From Candidatus Cloacimonadales bacterium (GTDB lineage: Bacteria; Cloacimonadota; Cloacimonadia; Cloacimonadales; JAIOQZ01): 64,000 nt of DNA. Below the pieces are notes generated by a model that was not told the origin of the DNA, made no database searches, and worked only from the letters and a program-made list of their open reading frames with translations. Numbering within the stretch: position 1 is the first letter of the stretch; each line of letters starts with the position of its first letter. The position numbers were made by a program, and so were the translations under genes. Positions 50,469 through 62,302 of the stretch are shown here, in pieces. The stretch spans positions 416,001 through 480,000 of the forward strand of contig OY771587.1 of assembly GCA_963674825.1 (NCBI GenBank), read 5' to 3'.

Positions 50469-53400
50469 CTATTTTATGATTGAGCCTTCACCCGGAAACA
50501 GCCCGAACAGGCTATATAGAGCTCGCTCATCAACAGGATGGTCTGTGAAAATGAAGAATCGCGGTTTGTTACTGACCATCTCACCCTTTGGAAGATCGAG
50601 AAAATCGTTGAACCAAATCCCAAGCAATTCGGGATCGCCAAGCACCTCAATTTCCTTCTCTTCCGGTTGCCAAAGCACTTGCAGTGAATCCTTACGTCTC
50701 TGGTGAACGTAGCGATAACTGCGATTCGGATGGATCTCCCAGTATTCTTCGCCCCAGAAGAAGCGCTTCGTCTTACCGTAGCGATTCGTATATTCCACGC
50801 AGACATCACCCGGATCGTTGCCCGGATTGATGAAGGTAATGGTTTCCGAGTGCTGCTCGAACGCATGCCCGATAGCTTCTTGCGAATAGGTTGAGAATAC
50901 CGCCATGATCGGAACTCCCGGCAGGCTCAAGTAATACTGGCTCCAGCTCTGACCTTTCCAGGCTTCAAGCTTTTCGATGCGACAATCTATACGGATGCCG
51001 CTCCAGCGATTACCCTTTCTATCGGAGACCTCGACGAATTCCGCACCCGTTTTCTCACCGATAGCCTTGAAATGTGAGATACCTTTAGGCTGTGCATACA
51101 TACCGCCATACCAGGGATTCCACCAACTGAAGGGTCGTGCCTCCGGGAACGAGCAGCTCAGCCATTCATTGCCGTTGTTCTTCAGTGAGATCAGGCCCAG
51201 ATTGAACGCAGGCGCTGCTTCGAAACGCACCTTACCATTGTCGTATGTCCATACATCGAATCCATTCCGTTCTTCTGTCGAAGTGCGAATATCTCCATTG
51301 ACAGTGAACATGGCCAATTGCCGCTGAATGCTTTCAGTTCCGTCATTGCGTTCCAGGGATAGAACTTCGATGGAAGGTGACGCTTCGCGCTTCAACTGGA
51401 CCGATTTCAGTTGTGCGTTTTCTTCTTTCGTGACCTCGAAGGATTCATTCTCGAACGAACCATGCTCGCTTTCGAGATGAAATTTACCGCAAAGCGGAAA
51501 TGCGCGATGTTCCACGATCTCGACCTTCGCATCACCGGTGATGAACGGGTTTCCATTCTCGCATGCCAATCGGAAGCAATCGACTTCCACAAGCTCCTGT
51601 TTGTTCTTCAATTCAGGCCTGATATACGCTCTGTACGATCGCCAATCGGCAAACCGGTTCATGGATATCCACATTGGATCGAGGCGCACATTTTCCCCTG
51701 TATCGGGCATCCCGGCGCAGTACTCGAAGTTTAATTTCCAGTCGTCCGCGTTTGGGTTGTCACCGAGCCAGCGAAAACCGAAGGATGTATCGAGCTTCCG
51801 CAGATAGCACCAGTTGCCGGTTACCGCACGCATATCCATGACATTGCCGTCAACCTGGATATCATCGGACGCTGTTACGACATACTCACCAGCTTCGTAG
51901 GCGTAATTGCTTCTGGGTACCCACACACCGCTGTGTACATGGATATCCTGTTCCGGCTCGACAGGCCCGGTGTTTTCGACCTCAAACCAGCGCTTGAAGT
52001 CGCCCGTAGCAAACAACTGCACAACTTGCTTCAGCACGATGCCCTGATATCGCTCGCTCCTGTAATGCAGCGTCATCTGCACGTATCTGGCTTCCTGCTT
52101 GAATTCGCATCGATCATACTTCCGGTTGTGAAACTCCTTGTTGTATGGCTTGCCCAGCATGGGAGCCAGGAAGAAGGCCTGTCCTTTGCGGGTCACGTCA
52201 TAGAGATTCGCCTCGTTATTCTGGTACGCGATATAGTGCCAGCGATCAACTCCAATGCAGGTCGCATAGCGAGTCTCGCCATAGAACATCTGCCCCGCTA
52301 CCGGAAGAATAACATCCGACTCCCGCAGGAATTTCACTTCGCCGCCACTTTCTGGCATAGCTGTGACTGCAATCTCCGGACGATACATGCATGCTTTTTT
52401 CACAATGGCGCGAATCGAAACGGTCGTCTTTTCATCGGCATCCAGCGTGATGTCGTGTTCGGACTGCATGAGCTCGATATCTGGAGTATCTTCCAGCTTA
52501 CACAGGAAGCGCGCTTTTTCGTCATAGCCATTACGGGCGTTCAGGTAAAGCGTGATCTCCTCACCGGCATGATACAGCCTCGTCTGCGCACCAAGCCACA
52601 GATTAAGCGGATACTTCGGGAAGATTCCCAATCGGAATTCCGCCATTTTCCGATCGATCGAGATATTCGCGCAGATGTTCGGGTGAATCTTGTTATCCTG
52701 TTGAGCCGATTCGATCGCTCCAACTTTGTATTGCGCCTTCAACTCGATTTTGTCGGCTACTTCGCCACTCCAGCTGAAATCGAACTCAATGTTGCGATCG
52801 CTGACCCCGTTGACCTCCACTGTTAGCGGCGTGTTGGTCTTGTTTTCGATGACAATGCGAGCTTCGTACTTCCTGCCGAACGGCTGTTTGAATTTATCAG
52901 CCAGCAGCCTTACCGTGAATCGCTCGTTTTCCACTGCACAGAGTCCCCGGCCATGGCGTGAATAGGCCAGCTTCATGAAACGCTCGCCATGCTTCCAGTG
53001 GTAGTCGTACAGCTCAAAGGTGTTTTCTTTACGGCCATCGGGGTTGATATCGATCTCGCGCACACTGTCCGCGTACCAATCGGCCTCCATGAAGAAGTCC
53101 TTCAGCAGATCCTGCTGCATAACGTTCGGAAGAAAGTTCATCAGGTGAGTACTGCCGTCTTTATCTTCGAAGAAGAAGCCGCATTTCTTGTAGAGCGGCA
53201 TAGCTTTCGTGTTTCCTGGCCAAGTGTAGAGATCAAGCCGGCTCCAGCCCAATTCGATGGAGCGCTCCACAGCTCGTTTGACCAATACCTTGCCAACCTT
53301 CTTGCCAAACCAGTCCGGGCGACAATTCAGCATTGCGATGTACAGTGTGTTCTTGTCACCGCTGAACTCCATCAGCGAACAATAGCCAACCACATCGTCA

Positions 53401-53585
53401 TTTGCCACTGCCAGAAAGACATTGAACGCCGGTGAGGCCGATTCCATGGCAAGCACGCGCTGTTCGGTCTGGTTAAACGTCTCTCCCAGCCAGCCTTCCG
53501 AGCTTTGGTTCCACATATCAGCCACTTTCGCGGCCCATTTCGGTTCATATTCAACTATTTCGAATGGATAGTTTTCCAGTTTCAT
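50469..53585 (-). CDS. Large (~1040 aa) protein with an N-terminal GNAT acetyltransferase domain
   Basis: LYIAMLNCRPDWFGKKVGK...LDLYTWPGNTKAMPLYKKCGF, then a beta-rich region of unknown function; start at MKLENY after GGAG. Confidence 0.8.
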   Translation of the reverse strand: MKLENYPFEIVEYEPKWAAKVADMWNQSSEGWLGETFNQTEQRVLAMESASPAFNVFLAVANDDVVGYCSLMEFSGDKNTLYIAMLNCRPDWFGKKVGKVLVKRAVERSIELGWSRLDLYTWPGNTKAMPLYKKCGFFFEDKDGSTHLMNFLPNVMQQDLLKDFFMEADWYADSVREIDINPDGRKENTFELYDYHWKHGERFMKLAYSRHGRGLCAVENERFTVRLLADKFKQPFGRKYEARIVIENKTNTPLTVEVNGVSDRNIEFDFSWSGEVADKIELKAQYKVGAIESAQQDNKIHPNICANISIDRKMAEFRLGIFPKYPLNLWLGAQTRLYHAGEEITLYLNARNGYDEKARFLCKLEDTPDIELMQSEHDITLDADEKTTVSIRAIVKKACMYRPEIAVTAMPESGGEVKFLRESDVILPVAGQMFYGETRYATCIGVDRWHYIAYQNNEANLYDVTRKGQAFFLAPMLGKPYNKEFHNRKYDRCEFKQEARYVQMTLHYRSERYQGIVLKQVVQLFATGDFKRWFEVENTGPVEPEQDIHVHSGVWVPRSNYAYEAGEYVVTASDDIQVDGNVMDMRAVTGNWCYLRKLDTSFGFRWLGDNPNADDWKLNFEYCAGMPDTGENVRLDPMWISMNRFADWRSYRAYIRPELKNKQELVEVDCFRLACENGNPFITGDAKVEIVEHRAFPLCGKFHLESEHGSFENESFEVTKEENAQLKSVQLKREASPSIEVLSLERNDGTESIQRQLAMFTVNGDIRTSTEERNGFDVWTYDNGKVRFEAAPAFNLGLISLKNNGNEWLSCSFPEARPFSWWNPWYGGMYAQPKGISHFKAIGEKTGAEFVEVSDRKGNRWSGIRIDCRIEKLEAWKGQSWSQYYLSLPGVPIMAVFSTYSQEAIGHAFEQHSETITFINPGNDPGDVCVEYTNRYGKTKRFFWGEEYWEIHPNRSYRYVHQRRKDSLQVLWQPEEKEIEVLGDPELLGIWFNDFLDLPKGEMVSNKPRFFIFTDHPVDERALYSLFGLFPGEGSIIK

Positions 53586-53676
53586 TTCAATCTCCAAAAT
53601 CTTTAACGTGTTAATCATCTATGCGTAAACGCCTCCATTCCGCGACGCCGACCGGCGTCCTGTTTCCATCCGATCT

Positions 53677-53754
53677 AAAAAGAAAAGGCTCGCAAAGAAT
53701 CGAATCTTCACGAGCCAAAATTTATCGTGAGCACCTAACAAGATCGATTCTTCG
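53677..53754 (-). promoter_or_regulatory. Terminator/antiterminator (attenuator) in the 5' leader of the GNAT gene
   Basis: GGCTCGTGAAGA...TCTTTGCGAGCC plus TTTTCTTTTT. The upstream AAGAATCGATCT..TCACGA can pair with the 5' arm of the terminator. Confidence 0.65.
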
Positions 53755-53810
53755 ACAGACCAATCCCGTCAGTGCAATGCTAATCAATGTACAGACCAAG
53801 ACCGGACGGT

Positions 53811-53846
53811 TTAACTCCTACTGCCAAGGTTGAAATCGTGACTCAT
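53811..53846 (-). CDS. Putative leader peptide MSHDFNLGSRS
   Basis: 11-codon ORF preceded by AAGGAGG, upstream of the attenuator. Confidence 0.5.
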   Translation of the reverse strand: MSHDFNLGSRS

Positions 53847-54046
53847 CTTTCCTCCTTTTTTCTTTGATGCACCAAACACTGGCTATGAGTTCATTTCTGG
53901 CAATCTTTTTTTTGTTACAAACCAGAAATATTGAATTGACACCTTTGAAAACAGATTGCAAAATACGGACTCGAATGCAATATAAACAGCGTATTGAAAA
54001 TGACGAGGTTCTGGACATTAACCATGCTAACTGAAACGAGGTATTG

Positions 54047-55240
54047 ATGAAGTACAATTGTCCCGCTGATGGAACTGAACTCGAACCGAAATCGAAGTAC
54101 AACGGACTGGTGCATGGCTGCTCGCATTGTGGCGGCGAAATGCTCAATATAACCATCCTGAAGAAAGACCCTGAACTGGAAGAGACAGCCCATACGATCT
54201 GGAAACTCTCCAAACCGGCATCGGATTCTGCCGGTTTCCAGTGTCCAGAATGCCATCGCGACATGAAGCGAGTCTATTATGAGGAAGCCGGTATTACCCT
54301 GCGTCTGTGCAGGCATTGTCAACTTATCTGGTTCGAGGAAGGACAGTACGACAAGCTTCCCAGGATCGATCCGGAAGTGGCCGCTCAGAACGCAGCATCC
54401 GTACTTTCCGAAAAATCGATCGAAGCGCTGCTGAAAGCGGAACGAACCATCGATGAGGAGATCAAGGAAACAATAGACTCACCGCCCCCGCCCAAGTTTA
54501 ATAACCTGTTCGAGGCGGTCTCCAACCTCCCGACTATCAACGATGACTTGGATCAGTCCGATATACCCTGGATCAGCTGGGGATTGATAACCATTTTCAC
54601 AATCGTGTTTCTATCCGCACTGAGCCATCTGGGCAAGAATGTGATGCATTTTGGCTACAGACCCACCGATCCATTCAGGATGTATGGCCTCACCATTTTC
54701 ACATCGTTCTTTCTGCAGCGAAACTTTCTCCACCTCTTTGCCGGTGTTTACTTCCTGAAACTGTTCGGCGAAAGGCTTGAGAAAAAATCCGGCTCACTTC
54801 TCGTGCTGCTCTTGCTTGCAGTAGGACACATAGCAGGGATACTGTTTCTTACGCTGTTCAACTTCGGTGACAAAGTTACCGAAATCGGCATCGGTGCAGG
54901 GCTATCGGCTCTCATCGCCTACTATGTTGTCCTTACACCAACCGAGAAGTTCAGCTTCATTCTGCTGTCCAGATTCCATAAACGTACGCCAACGCTCAAG
55001 CAAAGGCTGTTCGGAAGACCGGCAGTGTACCGGATCCCGGCATACTGGAGCCTCATTTCCTGGATCGTAATCCAGCTCTTCCTGCAATCGATTGCCAGCA
55101 TCTTTCTGGCGAAACATACAAGCTTGCTACCGGTCGTTGGCGGCACACTCGTCGGCCTCATGTGGGGATATGTTGTGCGCATCCGAAATAGTGAAGAACC
55201 CCTTGATGAAGGGAGATATCACAACATCACGATCAAGTGA
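54047..55240 (+). CDS. Zinc-ribbon rhomboid-like protein, catalytically inactive
   Basis: CPADG..CSHC..CPEC..CRHC N-terminus and a rhomboid TM core (TSFFL), but GIGAG replaces GASxG and LPVVGG replaces AHxGG. Confidence 0.8.
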   Translation: MKYNCPADGTELEPKSKYNGLVHGCSHCGGEMLNITILKKDPELEETAHTIWKLSKPASDSAGFQCPECHRDMKRVYYEEAGITLRLCRHCQLIWFEEGQYDKLPRIDPEVAAQNAASVLSEKSIEALLKAERTIDEEIKETIDSPPPPKFNNLFEAVSNLPTINDDLDQSDIPWISWGLITIFTIVFLSALSHLGKNVMHFGYRPTDPFRMYGLTIFTSFFLQRNFLHLFAGVYFLKLFGERLEKKSGSLLVLLLLAVGHIAGILFLTLFNFGDKVTEIGIGAGLSALIAYYVVLTPTEKFSFILLSRFHKRTPTLKQRLFGRPAVYRIPAYWSLISWIVIQLFLQSIASIFLAKHTSLLPVVGGTLVGLMWGYVVRIRNSEEPLDEGRYHNITIK

Positions 55241-55283
55241 TAAATATGGATTTCTGAACAATACCATGAATGGAAGAGAATAA

Positions 55284-56414
55284 ATGACGTATAAATGTCC
55301 ACGTGATGGAACCGAACTGGAAGTCGAAGTCATCCACGGCAGCAGGTTCTACACATGCTCGACTTGCGGCGGCGAGATGGTGAATTACGCAGTATTGCGA
55401 AAAGAACCGAAGCTTGCGAAAACCGCGAGGGCGATCTGGGATACATCGAAAGAAATACTGAACAACGAAGGTGTAGTATGCCCGGAATGCAACCAGCGAA
55501 TGGCTAGGGTTTATTACAAGGAAGCCGATGTAATGTTGGATCTCTGCCAGCATTGCCATCTTATCTGGTTCGATCGAGGCGAATACGAAGTGCTTCCCCG
55601 CGAAGAAATCAAGCCGGTTCAGCCAAAAGAGCTTTCGCAGAAATCGATAAAAGCTTTGCTTCAGGCGGAACGGGCAATCAATTCGGAGATTCTCGAAGCT
55701 TCCGCTACAACAGACCGACTGGAGCAAGAGTCCTACCCGACTACACAGGACGACCCTCTCGGGCAAGATATTCTGCCATGGATTACCTGGATTCTGCTCG
55801 CGGCATGCTTCGCGGCATACATTTTTGTTTTCAAAGATCCCGGTAAAAATCTCCAGCTATTCAGCTTCGACCCCGAAAATCCACTTCGCATTTACGGCCT
55901 GACCTGGATTACCTCGTTCTTTGTGCAGGAAGGTTACATCGAGCTGTTTCTTGTTCTCTTGTATCTGAACCGGTTTGGAGCGGTTACTGAAAAGGACTTC
56001 GGGCATTTGCGTCTTGTCATGTTGTTTATCGTCGGACATATCGTGGGTTTGATCCTGCTGACGGTATTCGATCTCGGTGAAAAGGGGCTTTTTACCGGCA
56101 TGATAGCAGGGCTGACAGCGGTTATGGTCCATTACATTACGGTACTGCCCAAGCAAATACTCGAGATGCCACTATTTCTCAAATACCTGGGTAGATACCT
56201 ACTCCCAGCAAATCAATTCGCAACGTATGGCTTACGTGGATACTGGGCTGTTCTCCTGTGGGCGCTGCTCCATATGTTTTTCAAGATGCTGATCGATGTA
56301 ACGACAAAAGAGCCTTACAGCCTGCTCCCGATGTTCGGCGGCGCGCTTGTCGGCTATCTGTGGGGCTTCATCGTCCGCCTGAAGCGCAGCGACAACAGCA
56401 TGAGGTACCAATGA
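55284..56414 (+). CDS. Zinc-ribbon rhomboid-like protein, catalytically inactive
   Basis: CPRDG..CSTC..CPEC..CQHC N-terminus; GMIAG and LPMFGG at the catalytic Ser and His positions. Confidence 0.8.
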   Translation: MTYKCPRDGTELEVEVIHGSRFYTCSTCGGEMVNYAVLRKEPKLAKTARAIWDTSKEILNNEGVVCPECNQRMARVYYKEADVMLDLCQHCHLIWFDRGEYEVLPREEIKPVQPKELSQKSIKALLQAERAINSEILEASATTDRLEQESYPTTQDDPLGQDILPWITWILLAACFAAYIFVFKDPGKNLQLFSFDPENPLRIYGLTWITSFFVQEGYIELFLVLLYLNRFGAVTEKDFGHLRLVMLFIVGHIVGLILLTVFDLGEKGLFTGMIAGLTAVMVHYITVLPKQILEMPLFLKYLGRYLLPANQFATYGLRGYWAVLLWALLHMFFKMLIDVTTKEPYSLLPMFGGALVGYLWGFIVRLKRSDNSMRYQ

Positions 56415-57517
56415 GTTACTTCTGCCCGGTCGATGGAACCAAGCTGGAAGCGATGGCCTTGAATAGCAGCCAGGTGTTTCGCTGCCCTCAATGCGGTGGT
56501 GAGATGGTCAACTACGCCACGTTGCGCAAAGACCCGAAGCGATTCGACAGCATGAAAGGCCTATGGAACGCCGCGCTTCAGATAACCGAACTCAACGGCA
56601 AGACATGCCCACTATGCGAACGCCATATGACGCGCGTCCATCTGCCGAACAGCGAGTCGTACGTCGATATTTGCAAGCCATGCCAGAATATCTGGCTCGA
56701 CAAGAGCGAATACGAGCTGATACCCACAAATGAGAACGCAAAGAACGTGCCGTTCGATCTCTACGAAGGCCTTTCCGAGAAAGCCAAAGACGAATTGCTG
56801 GCAGCCCAGCTTGAGGACTACCGGCGAGACAGAAAAGAAATGGAGAGTCCCATGCCGCGCGGATGGAAGCTGATACCGGCATTTCTCGGCTTACCGACCG
56901 AGGACGAAGGGATTCAGATCAGCAAGATGCCAATCGCAACCTGGATACTGGCTTCCATTTGCGTCATCGTGTACCTGTTCACGCGCGAAAATCCCGACTA
57001 CTATTATCAAACTTGGGGATTTATTGCCAACGGCCCAGTTATACACTCCATGATCACGGTCTTCACTTCGTTTTTCCTGCACGCTGGATGGTGGCATCTG
57101 ATCGGAAATATGTATTTCCTGGTGGTTTTCGGTGATAATGTGGAGGACGAAATCGGTTCACTACGTTTCTTGATTCTTATCTTTCTGGGTAACTTTTTCG
57201 GAACAATGCTCTATGCGCTCCTAGCGCTTTCGAGCGATATCCCATCGGTGGGAGCAAGCGCAGGGATATCGGCCGTCCTGGCCTATTACGTTGTGCTTTT
57301 TCCACGTTCGTACTTGCGGTTTCTTCTGTTCCGCTTCGTACCGTTCAAAATGCAAGCCTACTGGTTTCTCGTAATCTGGCTGATCATGCAGATAATCAAT
57401 TCAAGCTACCAGATGCGCTTCGAAGGGGGAGGTGTTAACGCACTGGCGCACCTTGGCGGCGCAGCGGTGGGACTTGTTTGGGGAATCGTCATGCGAAATC
57501 AGTATTCGAGAGAGTAG
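56411..57517 (+). CDS. Zinc-ribbon rhomboid intramembrane serine protease, active site intact
   Basis: Start at MSYFCPVDG (ATGA overlap); HAGWWHLIGNM, VGASAG and AHLGG. Confidence 0.92.
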   Translation: MSYFCPVDGTKLEAMALNSSQVFRCPQCGGEMVNYATLRKDPKRFDSMKGLWNAALQITELNGKTCPLCERHMTRVHLPNSESYVDICKPCQNIWLDKSEYELIPTNENAKNVPFDLYEGLSEKAKDELLAAQLEDYRRDRKEMESPMPRGWKLIPAFLGLPTEDEGIQISKMPIATWILASICVIVYLFTRENPDYYYQTWGFIANGPVIHSMITVFTSFFLHAGWWHLIGNMYFLVVFGDNVEDEIGSLRFLILIFLGNFFGTMLYALLALSSDIPSVGASAGISAVLAYYVVLFPRSYLRFLLFRFVPFKMQAYWFLVIWLIMQIINSSYQMRFEGGGVNALAHLGGAAVGLVWGIVMRNQYSRE

Positions 57518-57575
57518 AATGCCACGGCTTTGATACGCTCAGTGTTATGTGAACACGCTATTCTAATGGAAAAAC

Positions 57576-57602
57576 AAAGGCAGGTCTCTCGACCTGCCTT
57601 TT
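57576..57602. terminator. Bidirectional terminator
   Basis: AAAGGCAGGTC-TCTC-GACCTGCCTTTT. Confidence 0.85.
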
Positions 57603-57624
57603 ATCTAAATCGAAGATAATTCCG

Positions 57625-57838
57625 CTAACATGACTTCTCTTCGCGAAGTCACAACGTTCGACCATTTCGTTTCTGCTATGCAGAAGCTAACGATCCACTC
57701 TCGCTATTTCGCTTCGCGAAAGGCTTTCGTTCGATGTTTTCGTTTTCGCTTCGCGAAAGCCGACGTTCCACTAACATGACTTCTCTTCGCGAAGTCACAA
57801 CGTTCGACCATTTCGTTTCTGCTACGCAGAAGCCGAAA
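57625..57838. repeat. Tandem array of six alternating 37/36-bp hairpin units
   Basis: A 63-bp repeat at 57625-57687 and 57771-57833 (one mismatch). Each unit contains a short hairpin, and the five complete units end in CG(T/A)TC(C/G)A. Confidence 0.85.
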
Positions 57839-60367
57839 TTATTTCATCAGCATCGCTTTTCTTGTGAAAGACTTACCGGCTGAAGTCATGCGAATCAGAT
57901 ACAATCCGCTGGCTACCGGTTTCCTTCTTGCATCTGTTCCGTCCCAAATATAGCTGTGCGCACCTGAAGTCAGATTCTCATCGACCAGTGTCGTAATCTT
58001 CTGACCACGTGTATTGTATATCTCCACGCAAGCATGGCCGGCATTCTCGAGCGAGAAGGATACGGTCGTCTCGGGGTTGAACGGATTCGGATAGCATGCG
58101 TTGAGTGCTGTAGTATAACCAGGCGCCGAAGGGTCATCGCTACCGAGGTAGTCGATATAGACTTCGGTGACAGCGGGATCTTCCACCAGCTCCATCTCGT
58201 TCCACTTCGCAGACTGGAAGTAAACGTTGGTGTAGGTGTCGCTGAGTCCACTTACAGAGCTGCTGAAATTCAGTACGATGGTTGCTTCTTCCACGTTGAT
58301 CGGGCTTGACGAACTGCACGATACATGCACGATCCCGTTATCGCCACTGTATTCGATGCTGTTGAAGCTCATCCCTGGATATTCGATCGATTCGAACGCA
58401 AGGAGGCTGGCATCGTAAGTGAACGTCCAGCTACAAGCATATACGTTATCGACATTCGCCAATGTGAAAGGTACTTCGATGTAAGAACTTCCGCTGATCG
58501 TAACATCTTCGCCAAGAATCTCTGCCGAAGCATCGAATTCACCATCGAGAACCTCGTATGGCAGCTCGGTGATCGCGCCGACAACGTATTTCAGGATCAG
58601 TGTTGCGTCCAGTGACGTAATTTCACCATCGAAGCTCGCGTCTGCAATGACCATCTGAATTTCATCGAAATCAACCTGGCCCGTGAGATATTGCAGGATC
58701 AGAGAAGCATCCCAGGCCTGTACATCACCATTCATATCCACATCGCCGAACATGTCTTCCAGCCCAACCAGGATACGTCCTGGATGCGAAACAACCGGAA
58801 CGATACCGGTATTCACTGTTACCGGACCAAATGTCACATCTACGACATTCAGTTCGGGGGTAGACGGGATATCGAACACTATATTCGCCAGCAGGCCTTC
58901 GCCATTGATCGGTGTTGAGCCTGCGCACGCGATATAAAGGTCATCGCCTTCAAGATTCCATTCGGTTATCCAGTTGTTTGCATCCGGCATCGAGTCAGTA
59001 AACATCACATCCACCGGTGTTGCTTCTGTGCCAAAGCCGTTTACAACGATCTCAAAAGCCTGAATGTTCAACTCATCCGGAATAACACAGGTAATCGGAA
59101 CCGTTGCTGTAGAGCCTGCATCGGCAAACACCTGTCCTGCGTAGATATCGACCACAACATCATCTTCTTCCGGCTGGAATTCATAGCAGCCCATATCGAT
59201 ACCGACCACGCTGTCCAAATTGCCATCGACGAAGCGAGGATTACCCAGCAAATCCAGTTCGCAGAACGGATAGCCGATGTTCTCGTCGCTTCCGGCATCG
59301 ATGCAGGGAGAGTCTGAGCTCAGAGTAAATACGAAGTCCGTCGGTGCGACGAACATCGGATCCTCGGAGATACAACCAGTCCCAGCTGAACAGCCATAGT
59401 AGTTACCGGCAGTGTTGTTCCAGACGTCGTTATTATTAATCTGTAAGGCGTTTGTCGTACTGTAAATGCCATAATCGTCGTTGCTAGCCACAATGTTATT
59501 GTAGATAATGGGGTTACTATAGACCACACCGATACCGCCACCTGTGGGGGCATAGTGGGTTGATGAATTATTGACGATGATATTGTTCCTGATTACGGGA
59601 GCATTACTGCAGAGGCAGTAAACACCACCACCATGATCATCTGTTGTGTTTCCATAGAAGAGGTTGTTTTCTACCAACGCATCTGAGTAATAAATGGTAA
59701 TACCACCACCACCACCCATATAATCATGCCACGCTTCATTGTAGCGAATGATATTGTTGCGAACAATCGGGTAATCTCCAGGAGTATTTTGCGTGTGGTG
59801 TAAGCCAATTGCACCGCCTCCTGCAAAGTCTGTCGCGTCTGCTACGTTATATTCAAGAAGACAGTTCTCGATGATACCGTCTGCTCCATCGTTAAAAAAA
59901 ATCGCACCACCACACCCTCTGGCAGCATTCCCTGTACCGGCAATACAATGCCGAATGATACAGTTTCGGACGATAATTGATCCAGCCGTACAGAAGATAC
60001 CACCACCGTGTCTTCCTGCATTTCCATTCTCAATTGTAAAGCCTTCGATCACATCATCACGAGTCTGATTCGAATAGTTAAAATAGAAAGCCCGTCCCTG
60101 GTCTTCGCAATCGATGATACAGTTTTCTGGACCATTCTGAGACCTTACGATAAGGTGCTTTACAGCTCCATCCCAGCCCATTTCACGATTCGATTCACCA
60201 GTGTAGATTCCATCAAGAACAACAATTTCATCGCCATCGGACGCTTGAGCAATCGCTTCTGAAATCGATGTGAAGTCTCCTGTACCATTGACATCGACTA
60301 AGATCGTTTCAGCATATGCCCAGCTGCACAATAGCATGATGATCGTGAGGAAAAACGTTCGTTTCAT
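57839..60367 (-). CDS. Secreted protein: right-handed beta-helix, cohesin-like, dockerin, cohesin-like and FlgD-Ig/T9SS-like C-terminal domains
   Basis: Signal peptide, GGGI/NNII beta-helix repeats, DSPCIDAG...IDMGCYE, dockerin GDVDMNGDVQAWDASLILQY and ADASFDGEITSLDATLILKY, and CYPNPFNP...KAMLMK. Confidence 0.85.
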   Translation of the reverse strand: MKRTFFLTIIMLLCSWAYAETILVDVNGTGDFTSISEAIAQASDGDEIVVLDGIYTGESNREMGWDGAVKHLIVRSQNGPENCIIDCEDQGRAFYFNYSNQTRDDVIEGFTIENGNAGRHGGGIFCTAGSIIVRNCIIRHCIAGTGNAARGCGGAIFFNDGADGIIENCLLEYNVADATDFAGGGAIGLHHTQNTPGDYPIVRNNIIRYNEAWHDYMGGGGGITIYYSDALVENNLFYGNTTDDHGGGVYCLCSNAPVIRNNIIVNNSSTHYAPTGGGIGVVYSNPIIYNNIVASNDDYGIYSTTNALQINNNDVWNNTAGNYYGCSAGTGCISEDPMFVAPTDFVFTLSSDSPCIDAGSDENIGYPFCELDLLGNPRFVDGNLDSVVGIDMGCYEFQPEEDDVVVDIYAGQVFADAGSTATVPITCVIPDELNIQAFEIVVNGFGTEATPVDVMFTDSMPDANNWITEWNLEGDDLYIACAGSTPINGEGLLANIVFDIPSTPELNVVDVTFGPVTVNTGIVPVVSHPGRILVGLEDMFGDVDMNGDVQAWDASLILQYLTGQVDFDEIQMVIADASFDGEITSLDATLILKYVVGAITELPYEVLDGEFDASAEILGEDVTISGSSYIEVPFTLANVDNVYACSWTFTYDASLLAFESIEYPGMSFNSIEYSGDNGIVHVSCSSSSPINVEEATIVLNFSSSVSGLSDTYTNVYFQSAKWNEMELVEDPAVTEVYIDYLGSDDPSAPGYTTALNACYPNPFNPETTVSFSLENAGHACVEIYNTRGQKITTLVDENLTSGAHSYIWDGTDARRKPVASGLYLIRMTSAGKSFTRKAMLMK

Positions 60368-60501: not shown

Positions 60502-61296
60502 TTAGCTAGTTCTTCGGTATAATCCAACTCCGCGCGTTGGTAGATCTTCAAGAACTGATACCAGTTTAAACCCCATAGATTCAAGGCGATTCGTCATCTC
60601 TTCCCGCGAGATAATCCAGTCATGCCACTCTAATAATACAGCATCAACTCGATCGAAGAAACTATTGCCAGGAACAAGAAAATCTTTTTCTCCACCCTCG
60701 ATATCGATCTTTGCAAGGCTGCATCGTACATCTCCGAAAGCTTTTAACCACTCTTCTTCGACATCGACTGTCGAAACCATTATCTTGTGCCACTTGCCTT
60801 TCTGCGGCAATCCTGGTTCTCCTTCCGGAAAGCGAGATGAAATAATGTGAGAATCACTTACAAAGAATTCTTCAATAGTCGTTTCTCCGGGAGCAGAAAC
60901 AAGCCCATTAACAACATGCAGGTTACTCAATCGATTTTTCTTAGTCATCCACCGAGTCTCTTCGCACATCTCAGGATTGGCGTCTATCGCGATCCCTTTC
61001 AAGGCCTTATTCTTTGTCTTATCCGCAACCAAAGCCGAAAAGTACCCTATATTGCAACCAATATCGATAAAAGAACCGATCGTTCCGTCGAATGCTTGTC
61101 CATAGACACCAGACGAAAACACTTCGCTTGCCAGTATGAATGATTCAACGTGCTTGATTCTATATCTTGTACCATTTGGCAAAGCTTTCACGATCGGAAA
61201 TTTATGTAGCAGCCACGTGATCAGGTAGCGGAAACCAAGCTTATTCAGCATAAAATGCACTATGCCAAGTCGATTCAGAAGCTCAACTACGCTCAT
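60502..61296 (-). CDS. FkbM-family methyltransferase
   Basis: FIDIGCNIGYFS and KIDIEGGE...LLEWH; start at MSVVELL after GGAGG. Confidence 0.85.
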   Translation of the reverse strand: MSVVELLNRLGIVHFMLNKLGFRYLITWLLHKFPIVKALPNGTRYRIKHVESFILASEVFSSGVYGQAFDGTIGSFIDIGCNIGYFSALVADKTKNKALKGIAIDANPEMCEETRWMTKKNRLSNLHVVNGLVSAPGETTIEEFFVSDSHIISSRFPEGEPGLPQKGKWHKIMVSTVDVEEEWLKAFGDVRCSLAKIDIEGGEKDFLVPGNSFFDRVDAVLLEWHDWIISREEMTNRLESMGFKLVSVLEDLPTRGVGLYRRTS

Positions 61297-62302
61297 TGGC
61301 GTCCTCCGTTTCATCAAGTAATTCTTTACCGGAAAATATCGAAGTACCTGTCCAGCTCAAAGCGATCACCCCGAGAATGACGATCAGTAATCCCGTCAGC
61401 AAATGCCCGAAAGTCATAACGGCACTAACGAGGTTTTTGTCCAGCCCAAATCCAACACTGAAAATCAACACCATCAGTAACTCATTGCTGCCGATTTGTG
61501 CCGGAGGATGAGGCAAAACATAGGATAGATAGATCAAAGTGTAGCCGAAAAGCACAGTGAAAAATCCAATTGGTGTACCGAACGCCCAGAACAAAAGAAT
61601 AACAACAAGCGTATCGGTCAGCACAGCAAACAGAGTCAGAAAGACAATTTGCGGGATCAGCATATAATGGTGACGAAACAAGCCTACACCCTGCATAAAG
61701 AGCGAAAAGACTTCCTTAACTTTCATCTTCTGCTTTTCAGGCAAAAAGAAAAACAAGTTGAGGATCACAGCCGTCGTCTTTTCATGAGCCAATGACGCTG
61801 CAATAAGAATGAAGATGCCGATCAATACGATTCCAAGAATTATTGAAATCAGTCCCCACAGCGGTTTGCTTATATGAATAGGCAAGAAAGGAATCAACAA
61901 CAGCACAATGAAAATCGCGATAGAATCGAACAGCTTATCAATAAAAACCGTTGGCAGCGTTCGCGATACACGCAAGTTGTATTTTCTTTTCAGGAAATAG
62001 CATTTCGCAATCTCACCTGCACGAATAGGGATAACATAGTTTATGAAATTACTGCCCATGAAGATGTTGTATGTCGATAATGGGGGAACTCTTTGCACCG
62101 TGGAAAGTATCACATTCCAGCGCAGGGATCGTATCAGATATGATATAACATACACCAATGCAGATAACAGCGCTATACGAACGTCTATTTGAAGGAAATA
62201 TCCCACTAAAATCGAAGGATCAATCACATAGAACCAGATGCCCAGAAAGATAAGCCCGAGCAAAAAACTTAAGGCCATGCGCATATATTTATTTTTCAAC
62301 AT
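61283..62302 (-). CDS. Lysylphosphatidylglycerol-synthase TM / flippase-like (UPF0104) membrane protein
   Basis: RSLRW..IL, N.VIP.RAGE, D.LFD and P.PP.QIGSNE. Confidence 0.85.
   Translation of the reverse strand: MLKNKYMRMALSFLLGLIFLGIWFYVIDPSILVGYFLQIDVRIALLSALVYVISYLIRSLRWNVILSTVQRVPPLSTYNIFMGSNFINYVIPIRAGEIAKCYFLKRKYNLRVSRTLPTVFIDKLFDSIAIFIVLLLIPFLPIHISKPLWGLISIILGIVLIGIFILIAASLAHEKTTAVILNLFFFLPEKQKMKVKEVFSLFMQGVGLFRHHYMLIPQIVFLTLFAVLTDTLVVILLFWAFGTPIGFFTVLFGYTLIYLSYVLPHPPAQIGSNELLMVLIFSVGFGLDKNLVSAVMTFGHLLTGLLIVILGVIALSWTGTSIFSGKELLDETEDANERS

Follow-up and report, generated by a model that had tools for sequence, protein, structure and literature searches.

Two putative rhomboid pseudoproteases beside a predicted active zinc-ribbon rhomboid in a Cloacimonadales genome

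The window, the whole 64,000-nucleotide stretch of DNA that we analyzed, carries three rhomboid genes on the plus strand, each encoding an N-terminal double zinc ribbon, and two of the three lack the catalytic dyad. We conclude that these two are a real, lineage-restricted pair of bacterial rhomboid pseudoproteases that likely bind clients without cutting them. Gene 1 (54047..55240, 397 residues; assigned from PF13453, PF01694, alignment and a structural model) and gene 2 (55284..56414, 376 residues) encode the dyad-less proteins, and gene 3 (56411..57517, 368 residues) encodes a rhomboid with a complete active site that is predicted to be active. Genes 1 and 2 are separated by 43 nucleotides, and genes 2 and 3 are joined by an ATGA overlap at 56411-56414; the open reading frames and this overlap agree with the coupled tandem of paralogues described in a first-pass annotation of the DNA. 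That all three proteins combine a double zinc ribbon with a rhomboid core, as also claimed there, was upheld by the Pfam profiles: PF13453 matched above its cut-off over two stretches of each protein, and PF01694 scored 34.6, 27.2 and 105.1 bits for genes 1, 2 and 3, respectively (Pfam cut-off 22.6). Pairwise identity among the three is 30-38% (BLAST). They account for every PF01694 match in the closed 3.89-Mb genome, of which gene 3 is the sole predicted active rhomboid. Two runs from a single sample each yielded one contig that matches positions 53000-57654 with 0 differences; this sample is possibly the source of the window and so is not independent. Sequencing runs carrying the locus numbered three, all from one study, and no RNA run was listed among them.

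Gene 3 has H224, H229xxxN233, GAS283AG and AH347LGG, and hence the GxSx of TM4, the A/GH of TM6 and the HxxxN motif, just as first described (H229, N233, S283 and H347). Such motifs do not prove activity, because YdcA is reported to have all the rhomboid motifs yet its activity was not detected (PMC7231995). In gene 1 the loop-1 histidine is replaced by Gln, HxxxN has become H-xxx-G and the remaining motifs read GIGAG and LLPVVGG, and in gene 2 the corresponding elements are Gln, E-xxx-V, GMIAG and LLPMFGG. The dyad positions are thus Gly and Val in gene 1 and Ile and Met in gene 2 (whose active-site positions are now Q/E/V/I/M), and the dyad is absent from both. Gene 1 lost only the Asn of HxxxN and retained the His, whereas gene 2 lost both. 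The alignment confirms the earlier statements that genes 1 and 2 lack the HxxxN Asn, the catalytic Ser and the catalytic His, and that each has a Pro in the column directly preceding the catalytic His. Members of the dead clade carry Q224, L360 and P362, which ~0% of active members carry, and gene 1 has a basic insert in the TM4-TM5 loop that is nearly identical in its orthologue from genome G003.

The dyad does not appear to have been displaced along the chain, a point raised in the first-pass annotation. TM4 begins at residue 283 in the AlphaFold models of both gene 3 and gene 1, and the active-site register is therefore not an alignment slip. That the dead copies remain enzymes by use of a relocated or different catalytic set seems to us extremely improbable. 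The His229 retained in gene 1 and the Asp found at the Ser position of the G003 orthologue would speak for such a set, but the copies have no polar active-site residue in common (they carry H/Y/E/Q at the His150-equivalent, G/N/V/G at the Asn position, G/D/I at the Ser position and V/M/M at the His position), and the TM4 register is unchanged in the models.

The gene 1 double zinc ribbon (54047..54364, plus strand; PF13453 twice) would pair C5-D8 with C25-C28 and C66-C69 with C88-C91, bind zinc and lie in the cytoplasm. Its first knuckle is CPxD, giving seven Cys and one Asp, gene 3 has the same arrangement, and the ligands are invariant within the dead clade. For the membrane domain, the match to the six-helix GlpG fold comes from the models of genes 3 and 1: the gene 1 AlphaFold model aligned with GlpG at Z 17.0 (3odj; rmsd 2.6 over 154 residues) and that of gene 3 matched GlpG 2nr9 with a Foldseek E value of 2.6e-07. 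The ribbon domain gave no usable Atlas match and only weak Foldseek matches (ZifS 8yoz and RNA polymerase subunits), and a wide fold search barely covered it. A PDB sequence search gave no match. The array resembles GlpG of E. coli and H. influenzae in its six-helix fold and in the HxxxN, GxSxG and AHxGG motifs of gene 3, but differs in the N-terminal double PF13453 ribbon and in the missing dyad of genes 1 and 2. Gene 3 scored 18.5 bits with the NCBIfam GlpG model TIGR04239 (cut-off 250) and 27.2 bits with the rhombosortase model TIGR03902 (cut-off 84), and all three proteins fell far under both cut-offs.

As judged by sequence comparison, genes 1 and 2 are pseudoenzymes under purifying selection, firmly so for gene 1 and less so for gene 2, the relative of which is only partial and possibly paralogous. 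The G003 orthologue of gene 1 is 57% identical and likewise dyad-less. For this one full-length orthologous pair, with synonymous sites near saturation and several fits divergent, maximum likelihood gave a dN/dS of 0.138 (profile upper bound 0.22, LRT 152.7), far below 1 on the very check that had been proposed with the first-pass annotation. The membrane domain alone gave 0.05 (upper bound 0.12) and the ribbons 0.22 (upper bound 0.38), these regions being 60% and 61% identical, respectively. By the counting method the pair had a dN of 0.325 and a dS of 1.35, and the comparison pairs gave dN and dS of 0.354 and 2.0 (active pair) and of 0.191 and 1.34 (flanking GNAT gene). The likelihood fits for the gene 3 domains and for gene 1 versus gene 2 diverged owing to saturation and were not used. 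We also scored the 23 positions whose conservation reaches at least 95% across 138 active members, a set in which Ser and His are conserved by definition. The three full-length dead copies share none of the five active-site positions and 16 of the 18 others (Fisher p 0.0006). Individually, gene 1 retains 1/5 and 18/18 and gene 2 retains 0/5 and 16/18, and both gene 1 orthologues hold 18/18.

The low dN/dS, the selective loss of the active site and an intact tandem in a second species bear out the original view that the dead copies are maintained rather than decaying. The contrary reading, in which genes 1 and 2 would be redundant copies in slow decay that currently have no function, is hardly credible and already largely refuted. 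It would fit the restricted distribution (3 genomes, all of one genus, out of the 232 genomes of the phylum searched), the lack of a gene 2 type in G003 and the loss by gene 1 of family motifs that include WFDxxE and GLPxE, but the frames remain open at near-saturated synonymous divergence, dN/dS is far below 1 and the structural positions are held in full by both gene 1 orthologues.

The dead clade has support of 100/100 and a stem of 1.02, beyond which the tips measure 0.39/0.44 compared with 0.40/0.40 for the active pair; that is, a long stem was followed by a rate as slow as that of the active gene. As reconstructed in these trees, the active site was lost once along the dead clade's stem and a second duplication followed. 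The nearest relative of gene 2 is the cut gene of G002 (support 93/80). An AU test did not reject a grouping of all of the local clade's 7 dead rows (p 0.056), which leaves room for one or two losses there. P0017 and P0018 were left out of the trees because they duplicate the genes of G001 and G006.

The dead-plus-live array was seen in one genus only, as two complete loci and one cut locus. In 3 of the 3 genomes that have the site, its first gene belongs to the dead clade and lies at the same place next to a GNAT gene, and the dead-to-active junction is ATGA in the window and 1 nucleotide in G003. G003 carries the gene 1 type without the gene 2 type, the array of G002 begins with a gene 2-like copy, and genes 1 and 2 look partly interchangeable. 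The active gene stands alone in G001, of the same genus, and in G004, whereas the sole PF01694 match of G006 (same family, 98% complete) is a dead copy, and in G388 and G379 dead copies were found without any active zinc-ribbon rhomboid. Outside the genus none of 80 active loci had a dead neighbor (55 of the 80 had >1.3 kb on both sides, and 50 of the 80 genomes were searched whole). Extra rhomboid open reading frames in L101 and L124 turned out to be ordinary active rhomboids that lack ribbons. The proposed synteny of dead and active copies was hence upheld in part: a second species has the tandem intact, but the pairing fails in G001 and G006 and was not found beyond the genus.

These distributions bear on an iRhom-like reading, unlikely in our view, in which the products of genes 1 and 2 would bind that of gene 3 directly and control its activity or its choice of substrate. 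In each of the complete loci (2 of 2) the live copy lies next to a dead one and is tightly coupled to it, and Derlins are reported to make homo- and hetero-oligomers (PMC12615303). However, adjacency follows from tandem duplication alone, the unpaired copies of G001, G004 and G006 and the 80 active loci that lack a dead neighbor argue against the reading, and the same source describes active rhomboids as showing no significant dimerization in bilayers or in vivo (PMC12615303). Predicting a complex between the products of genes 3 and 1 gave a score of 0.00 with the controls not folded, so the result is no evidence either way. We are equally doubtful of a natural protease-pseudoprotease module, arisen by tandem duplication, in which one cutter would be bound by two re-specialized dead subunits that choose or gate its substrates upon a cytoplasmic signal read by the ribbons, a convergent counterpart of iRhoms and Derlins with the repeated dyad losses as independent births of the same device.

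The iRhom-like label of the first-pass annotation did not survive comparison, as the GPx motif and the IRHD by which iRhoms are defined in PMC6451368 are both missing. In place of GPx, gene 1 has GIG and gene 2 has GMI; the Pro precedes the His position rather than the Ser position; loop 1 is ~30 residues long and lacks Cys, whereas the cysteine-rich IRHD between TM1 and TM2 has ~230 residues (PMC6451368); and there are six core helices rather than seven TMDs. The origin also differs from that of iRhoms and Derlins, being a separate bacterial one inside the zinc-ribbon family. What is shared with those proteins is a rhomboid fold that is under selection without catalysis (PMC6451368, PMC12615303), and the gene 1 model aligned with iRhom1 (Z 15.5), iRhom2 (13.9) and Der1 (7.8). 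As for the Derlin motifs, WR of loop 1 and GxxxG, Arg211 and the GGxxxG of TM6 are kept, with Phe or Leu in place of Trp before the Arg; these motifs are superfamily-wide.

We favor, at roughly even odds, the reading that genes 1 and 2 are selected dyad-less duplicates, likely co-expressed with gene 3, that hold or present membrane-protein clients without cutting them. The comparisons show a single loss of the active site on the dead-clade stem, the fixation of Gln224, Leu360 and Pro362 around the old pocket, a second duplication, and lasting constraint on both the ribbons and the six-helix membrane domain. The dead membrane domain may still recognize client transmembrane helices (TMD recognition has been proposed as the rhomboid fold's core function, PMC6451368), and the cytoplasmic ribbons may link that domain with a partner or a signal. 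The dead copies would share the membrane-protein pathway of gene 3 with no need of a stable complex, although this sharing is not obligatory because dead copies occur where no active zinc-ribbon rhomboid was found (G006, G388, G379). B. subtilis YqgP is likewise a bacterial rhomboid; its N-terminal domain is cytosolic and binds metal, it acts as an adaptor with FtsH independently of catalysis, and its Ser-to-Ala mutant is still an FtsH substrate adaptor (PMC7231995). YqgP is active and has both roles in one chain (PMC7231995), whereas the dead paralogues here are separate natural genes; by analogy, the protease and adaptor roles joined in YqgP may be split between genes in this array. Counting against the client-binding reading, the adaptor role of YqgP requires an unobstructed active site (PMC7231995), whereas in gene 2 the Ser position is taken by Ile and the His position by Met.

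Alternatively, the zinc ribbons would do the work and the dead rhomboid domain would mainly anchor or scaffold them in the membrane, in a role that does not depend on gene 3. The double ribbon is also found in the phylum on ~220-residue proteins with a short hydrophobic tail (e.g., in G007, G145, G160 and G187) and on rhomboid-like domains that are strongly degenerate (three matches in G018 and three in G036, a genome with no PF01694 match), so the ribbons may carry the function. S. aureus ActH is another bacterial rhomboid-domain protein with its known function in an appended domain, and its rhomboid domain can be replaced by a single TM helix for LytH activation, but its appended domain is composed of extracellular TPRs (PMC9245657), whereas the ribbons here are predicted to be cytoplasmic. 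We think this alternative improbable, since the membrane domain is constrained at least as much as the ribbons (dN/dS upper bounds of 0.12 versus 0.38), and the residues newly fixed at the old active site together with the near-identical basic loop insert are more than an anchor needs.

Rhomboids of the identical PF13453 plus PF01694 architecture are widespread: 536 representatives matched the profile at E <= 1e-30 (the architecture was checked for the best 150 of them), and Atlas clusters contain as many as 2683 members. They are usually single and active, the dead-plus-live tandem having been found in this genus only. The dyad is missing in 11 of 146 representatives (P0151, a fragment, and P0153, with its C-terminus unaligned, are left out of this count), which indicates repeated loss across a widespread and unstudied family. 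A literature search found no paper on zinc-ribbon rhomboids or their pseudoproteases, although older rhomboid surveys may list inactive bacterial ones. In the accounts of PMC7231995 and PMC9245657 the characterized rhomboid pseudoproteases are eukaryotic, the bacterial cases being an engineered dead YqgP and a remark on rhomboids without catalytic residues, and the route from rhomboid to pseudoprotease is described as unclear (PMC7231995). Here a parent lies next to its dead daughters, with 30-38% identity among them, and a second species has an orthologous pair of dead and live genes, so that this transition becomes testable by co-expression of three small genes. Interest is tempered by the limitation of the array to one genus known here from genome sequence alone. 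Word-indexed protein searches, which are insensitive, found no further full-length dead-clade member, and two metagenome scans gave 601 and 595 pattern matches with zero confirmed relatives. At least one dead member is labeled 'serine protease' in a database. The IMG name of the architecture is 'membrane associated rhomboid family serine protease/Zn-finger nucleic acid-binding protein', and the protein cluster of gene 2 has a 44-residue fragment as its representative.

A candidate sigma-70 promoter at 53936..53964 on the plus strand (TTGACA, 17 nucleotides, CAAAAT; a 10/12 match) faces the array and may act as its promoter, but the scan returned 5 sites versus 5.0 in shuffled sequence. All three genomes compared (3 of 3) retain the sequence GAATTGACA, whereas the spacer that follows it diverges, and the -35 box is common to the arrays. 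Downstream of gene 3, between convergent genes, lies a GC-rich hairpin at 57576..57601 that was called on the minus strand; on the plus strand its stem is followed by TTTTAT, and it is possibly a terminator.

The three tandem plus-strand genes lie at 54047-55240 (gene 1), 55284-56414 (gene 2) and 56411-57517 (gene 3), as first annotated, and each product scored over the cut-off for two PF13453 zinc ribbons and a PF01694 rhomboid domain. The genome, which is closed and 99.6% complete, contains no other rhomboids. Gene 3 has the full set of active-site motifs (H224, H229xxxN233, GAS283AG and AH347LGG), in which H224, H229, N233, S283 and H347 were mapped by motif to GlpG His145, His150, Asn154, Ser201 and His254 (numbering as in PMC2989971). 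The five positions read Q, H, G, G and V in gene 1, and Q, E, V, I and M in gene 2. Hence, the first-pass annotation was correct that both genes lack the asparagine of HxxxN and the catalytic serine and histidine (G/G/V and V/I/M, respectively), to which it must be added that gene 1 retains the histidine of HxxxN and gene 2 has glutamate there. AlphaFold models of gene 3 and gene 1 (mean pLDDT 93.0 and 88.9) both matched GlpG and had the same helix register, and thus the register is not a product of misalignment.

A family profile at E ≤ 1e-15 matched 26 of 232 genomes of the phylum. In G003, a genome of the same genus, a two-gene tandem occupies the same site adjoining the large GNAT gene; its first gene is orthologous to gene 1 (57% identity) and likewise dyad-less (GIDAG and LVPMVGG), and its second, which starts 1 nt later, is active and orthologous to gene 3 (59% identity). 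G002 of the same genus has at this site a dead-clade gene already lacking HxxxN that runs off its contig ahead of the Ser and His positions, and the remainder was not found in the G002 assembly (90% complete). GNAT identity was 86% between G002 and G003 versus 71-73% between each and the window genome, and thus G002 and G003 are sisters. As their first array genes share only 39% identity despite this kinship, several dead types, at least two, were likely present in the ancestral array and have been lost differentially since. Synteny of dead and active genes was only partly conserved: a third genome of the genus (G001) has one active gene only, at a different site, G004 of the same family has one active copy, and in G006, also of the family (98% complete, 60 contigs), the sole PF01694 match is a dyad-less copy with GLGAG and NVGG. 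These solitary live and solitary dead copies weaken the proposal that the dead copies directly regulate gene 3, as does the reported lack of significant dimerisation of active rhomboids in bilayers (PMC12615303), and we consider such regulation improbable.

The first-pass annotation had also inferred that the dead copies are maintained, and dN/dS was indeed far below 1. By a counting method, gene 1 and its G003 orthologue gave dN 0.325 and dS 1.35, the active pair (gene 3 and its G003 orthologue) 0.354 and 2.0, and the GNAT gene 0.191 and 1.34. In a pairwise codon model, for which the codon alignment was made through protein and saturation softens the point values, dN/dS was 0.138 for the gene 1 pair (upper bound 0.22; LRT 152.7 against neutrality), with 0.05 (upper 0.12) in the membrane domain and 0.22 (upper 0.38) in the ribbons, and 0.11 (upper 0.22) for gene 2 and the G002 piece, which are possibly paralogues. 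Independent of the saturation, codon-alignment and paralogy caveats is the pattern at the 23 positions (18 non-catalytic and five active-site) conserved at ≥95% across 138 active members. Gene 1 and its G003 orthologue each kept 18 of 18 non-catalytic and one of five active-site residues, and gene 2 kept 16 of 18 and none of five. The dead copies have lost catalytic residues with both modules, ribbons and membrane domain, under constraint, and decay of genes 1 and 2 is unlikely. The former catalytic positions vary within the dead clade (H/Y/E/Q, G/N/V/G, G/D/I and V/M/M), Q224, L360 and P362 are fixed there and nearly absent from active members, and alternative catalysis by genes 1 and 2 is also unlikely. 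In both gene 1 orthologues the loop between TM4 and TM5 contains a common basic insert (36 residues versus a median of 23). A tree of 23 rows united the four dead genes with 100/100 support above a stem that measured 1.02, with tips of 0.39 and 0.44 for the gene 1 pair and 0.40 and 0.40 for the active pair; a long stem with ordinary tips fits what may have been a burst of change followed by new constraint.

The PF13453 plus PF01694 architecture is common, and IMG names it by both domains. Thirteen of 148 outside representatives lacked Ser or His in the alignment, or 11 of 146 after removal of two truncated rows (five with both residues gone), and the dead members that bear a name belong to Planctomycetes, Acidobacteria and Zixibacteria. 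The 16 dead rows of a 156-row FastTree require 11 changes, at least seven forced by starred branches. Dead-live pairing is not common in the family: none of 80 outside active loci, chosen by catalytic motif and mostly from Planctomycetota, Verrucomicrobiota and Lentisphaerae (55 with >1.3 kb on both sides), had a dead neighbour, and one had a second active copy in tandem. Whole-genome searches of 50 of those genomes gave further ribbon-bearing copies in two, one active and the other with Ser kept and cut before His. A 401-genome sample of another phylum gave 38 matches; two of the 36 regions retrieved were dyad-less (Ser to Gln, His to Tyr), both lacking a family neighbour and having other rhomboids elsewhere in the same genomes. 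The dead pair is real, selected and lineage-restricted.

Genes 1 and 2 would resemble rhomboid pseudoproteases in mode of working. The iRhom label given them earlier was not sustained: they lack GPx and IRHD, which are iRhom features, and, unlike iRhoms, arose within a bacterial family. Literature searches, with subscription papers mostly outside coverage, found nothing on rhomboid protease with zinc ribbon, zf-TFIIB/PF13453 or Cloacimon-, and none of the titles listed by broader searches concerned a dead rhomboid that occurs naturally in bacteria. By analogy, we give an even chance to genes 1 and 2 being non-cutting client binders that work alongside gene 3. The three genes would be co-transcribed; gene order is conserved with a common -35 box in three genomes, the promoter scan by itself being at chance level. 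Standard rhomboid topology suggests cytoplasmic placement of the N-terminal ribbons, which would be zinc-bound. The dead fold would bind clients without cutting them, as YqgP deprived of catalysis continues to present MgtE to FtsH (PMC7231995) and TMD recognition is regarded as the rhomboid fold's central role (PMC6451368). A working role for the ribbons on a membrane anchor, for which ActH is a precedent (PMC9245657), leaves the membrane-domain constraint unexplained and seems to us doubtful.

Several related proteins were encountered. G388 (L179:2538-3632) and G379 (L180:2489-3574), both of another phylum, encode a distinct dyad-less zinc-ribbon rhomboid type in which identical replacements (Pro at the His145 position, Ser to Gln and His to Tyr) suggest what may be another conserved pseudoprotease subfamily. 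Strongly degenerate zinc-ribbon rhomboid-like proteins with no recognisable dyad are encoded at three dispersed loci each in G018 (L036, L055, L170) and G036 (L038, L056, L171) and in G141 (L037); G036 had no PF01694 match. Besides such degenerate domains, the double ribbon in the phylum of the window also occurs, with its linker helix, on proteins of ~210-250 aa in which only a short hydrophobic tail follows, which probably forms two TM helices (L044-L052, from G145, G010, G160, G007, G187, G196, G181, G195 and G144). An active zinc-ribbon rhomboid has as its immediate upstream neighbour, at L076:4352-4972, an ORF of 207 codons that encodes the double zinc ribbon but no rhomboid domain.

The minus-strand leader (53640-53870) that precedes the 1049-aa GNAT gene shows strong conservation across three genomes (counterparts L021:7120-7355 and L023:10500-10735). 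As it contains an upstream ORF of 11 codons (53846-53811) as well as a long stem-loop and, at 53716-53687, a terminator-like hairpin, it may act as an attenuator or a riboswitch. The only match in Rfam was a weak one to the trpB motif (28.8 bits versus 59 gathering, E 0.48), and one of 54 predicted pairs was compensatory. The interval separating gene 3 from the gene that follows holds a REP-like dispersed repeat (57601-57860), for which blastn gave 59 hits spread over 27 distinct 2-kb bins of the genome; in sequencing runs, depth spiked and contigs broke at this region. The minus-strand gene at 57839-60367, whose 842-aa product is predicted to be secreted and carries cohesin, dockerin and FlgD/Por-tail domains, sits between gene 3 and a flippase-like gene (61283-62302), the orthologue of which directly follows the rhomboids in G003. 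Elsewhere in the genome, ARAGORN identified a tRNA-Sec (C1:1971717-1971811) and a tRNA-Leu (C1:3854377-3854464) with anticodon AAG, which is unusual in bacteria.
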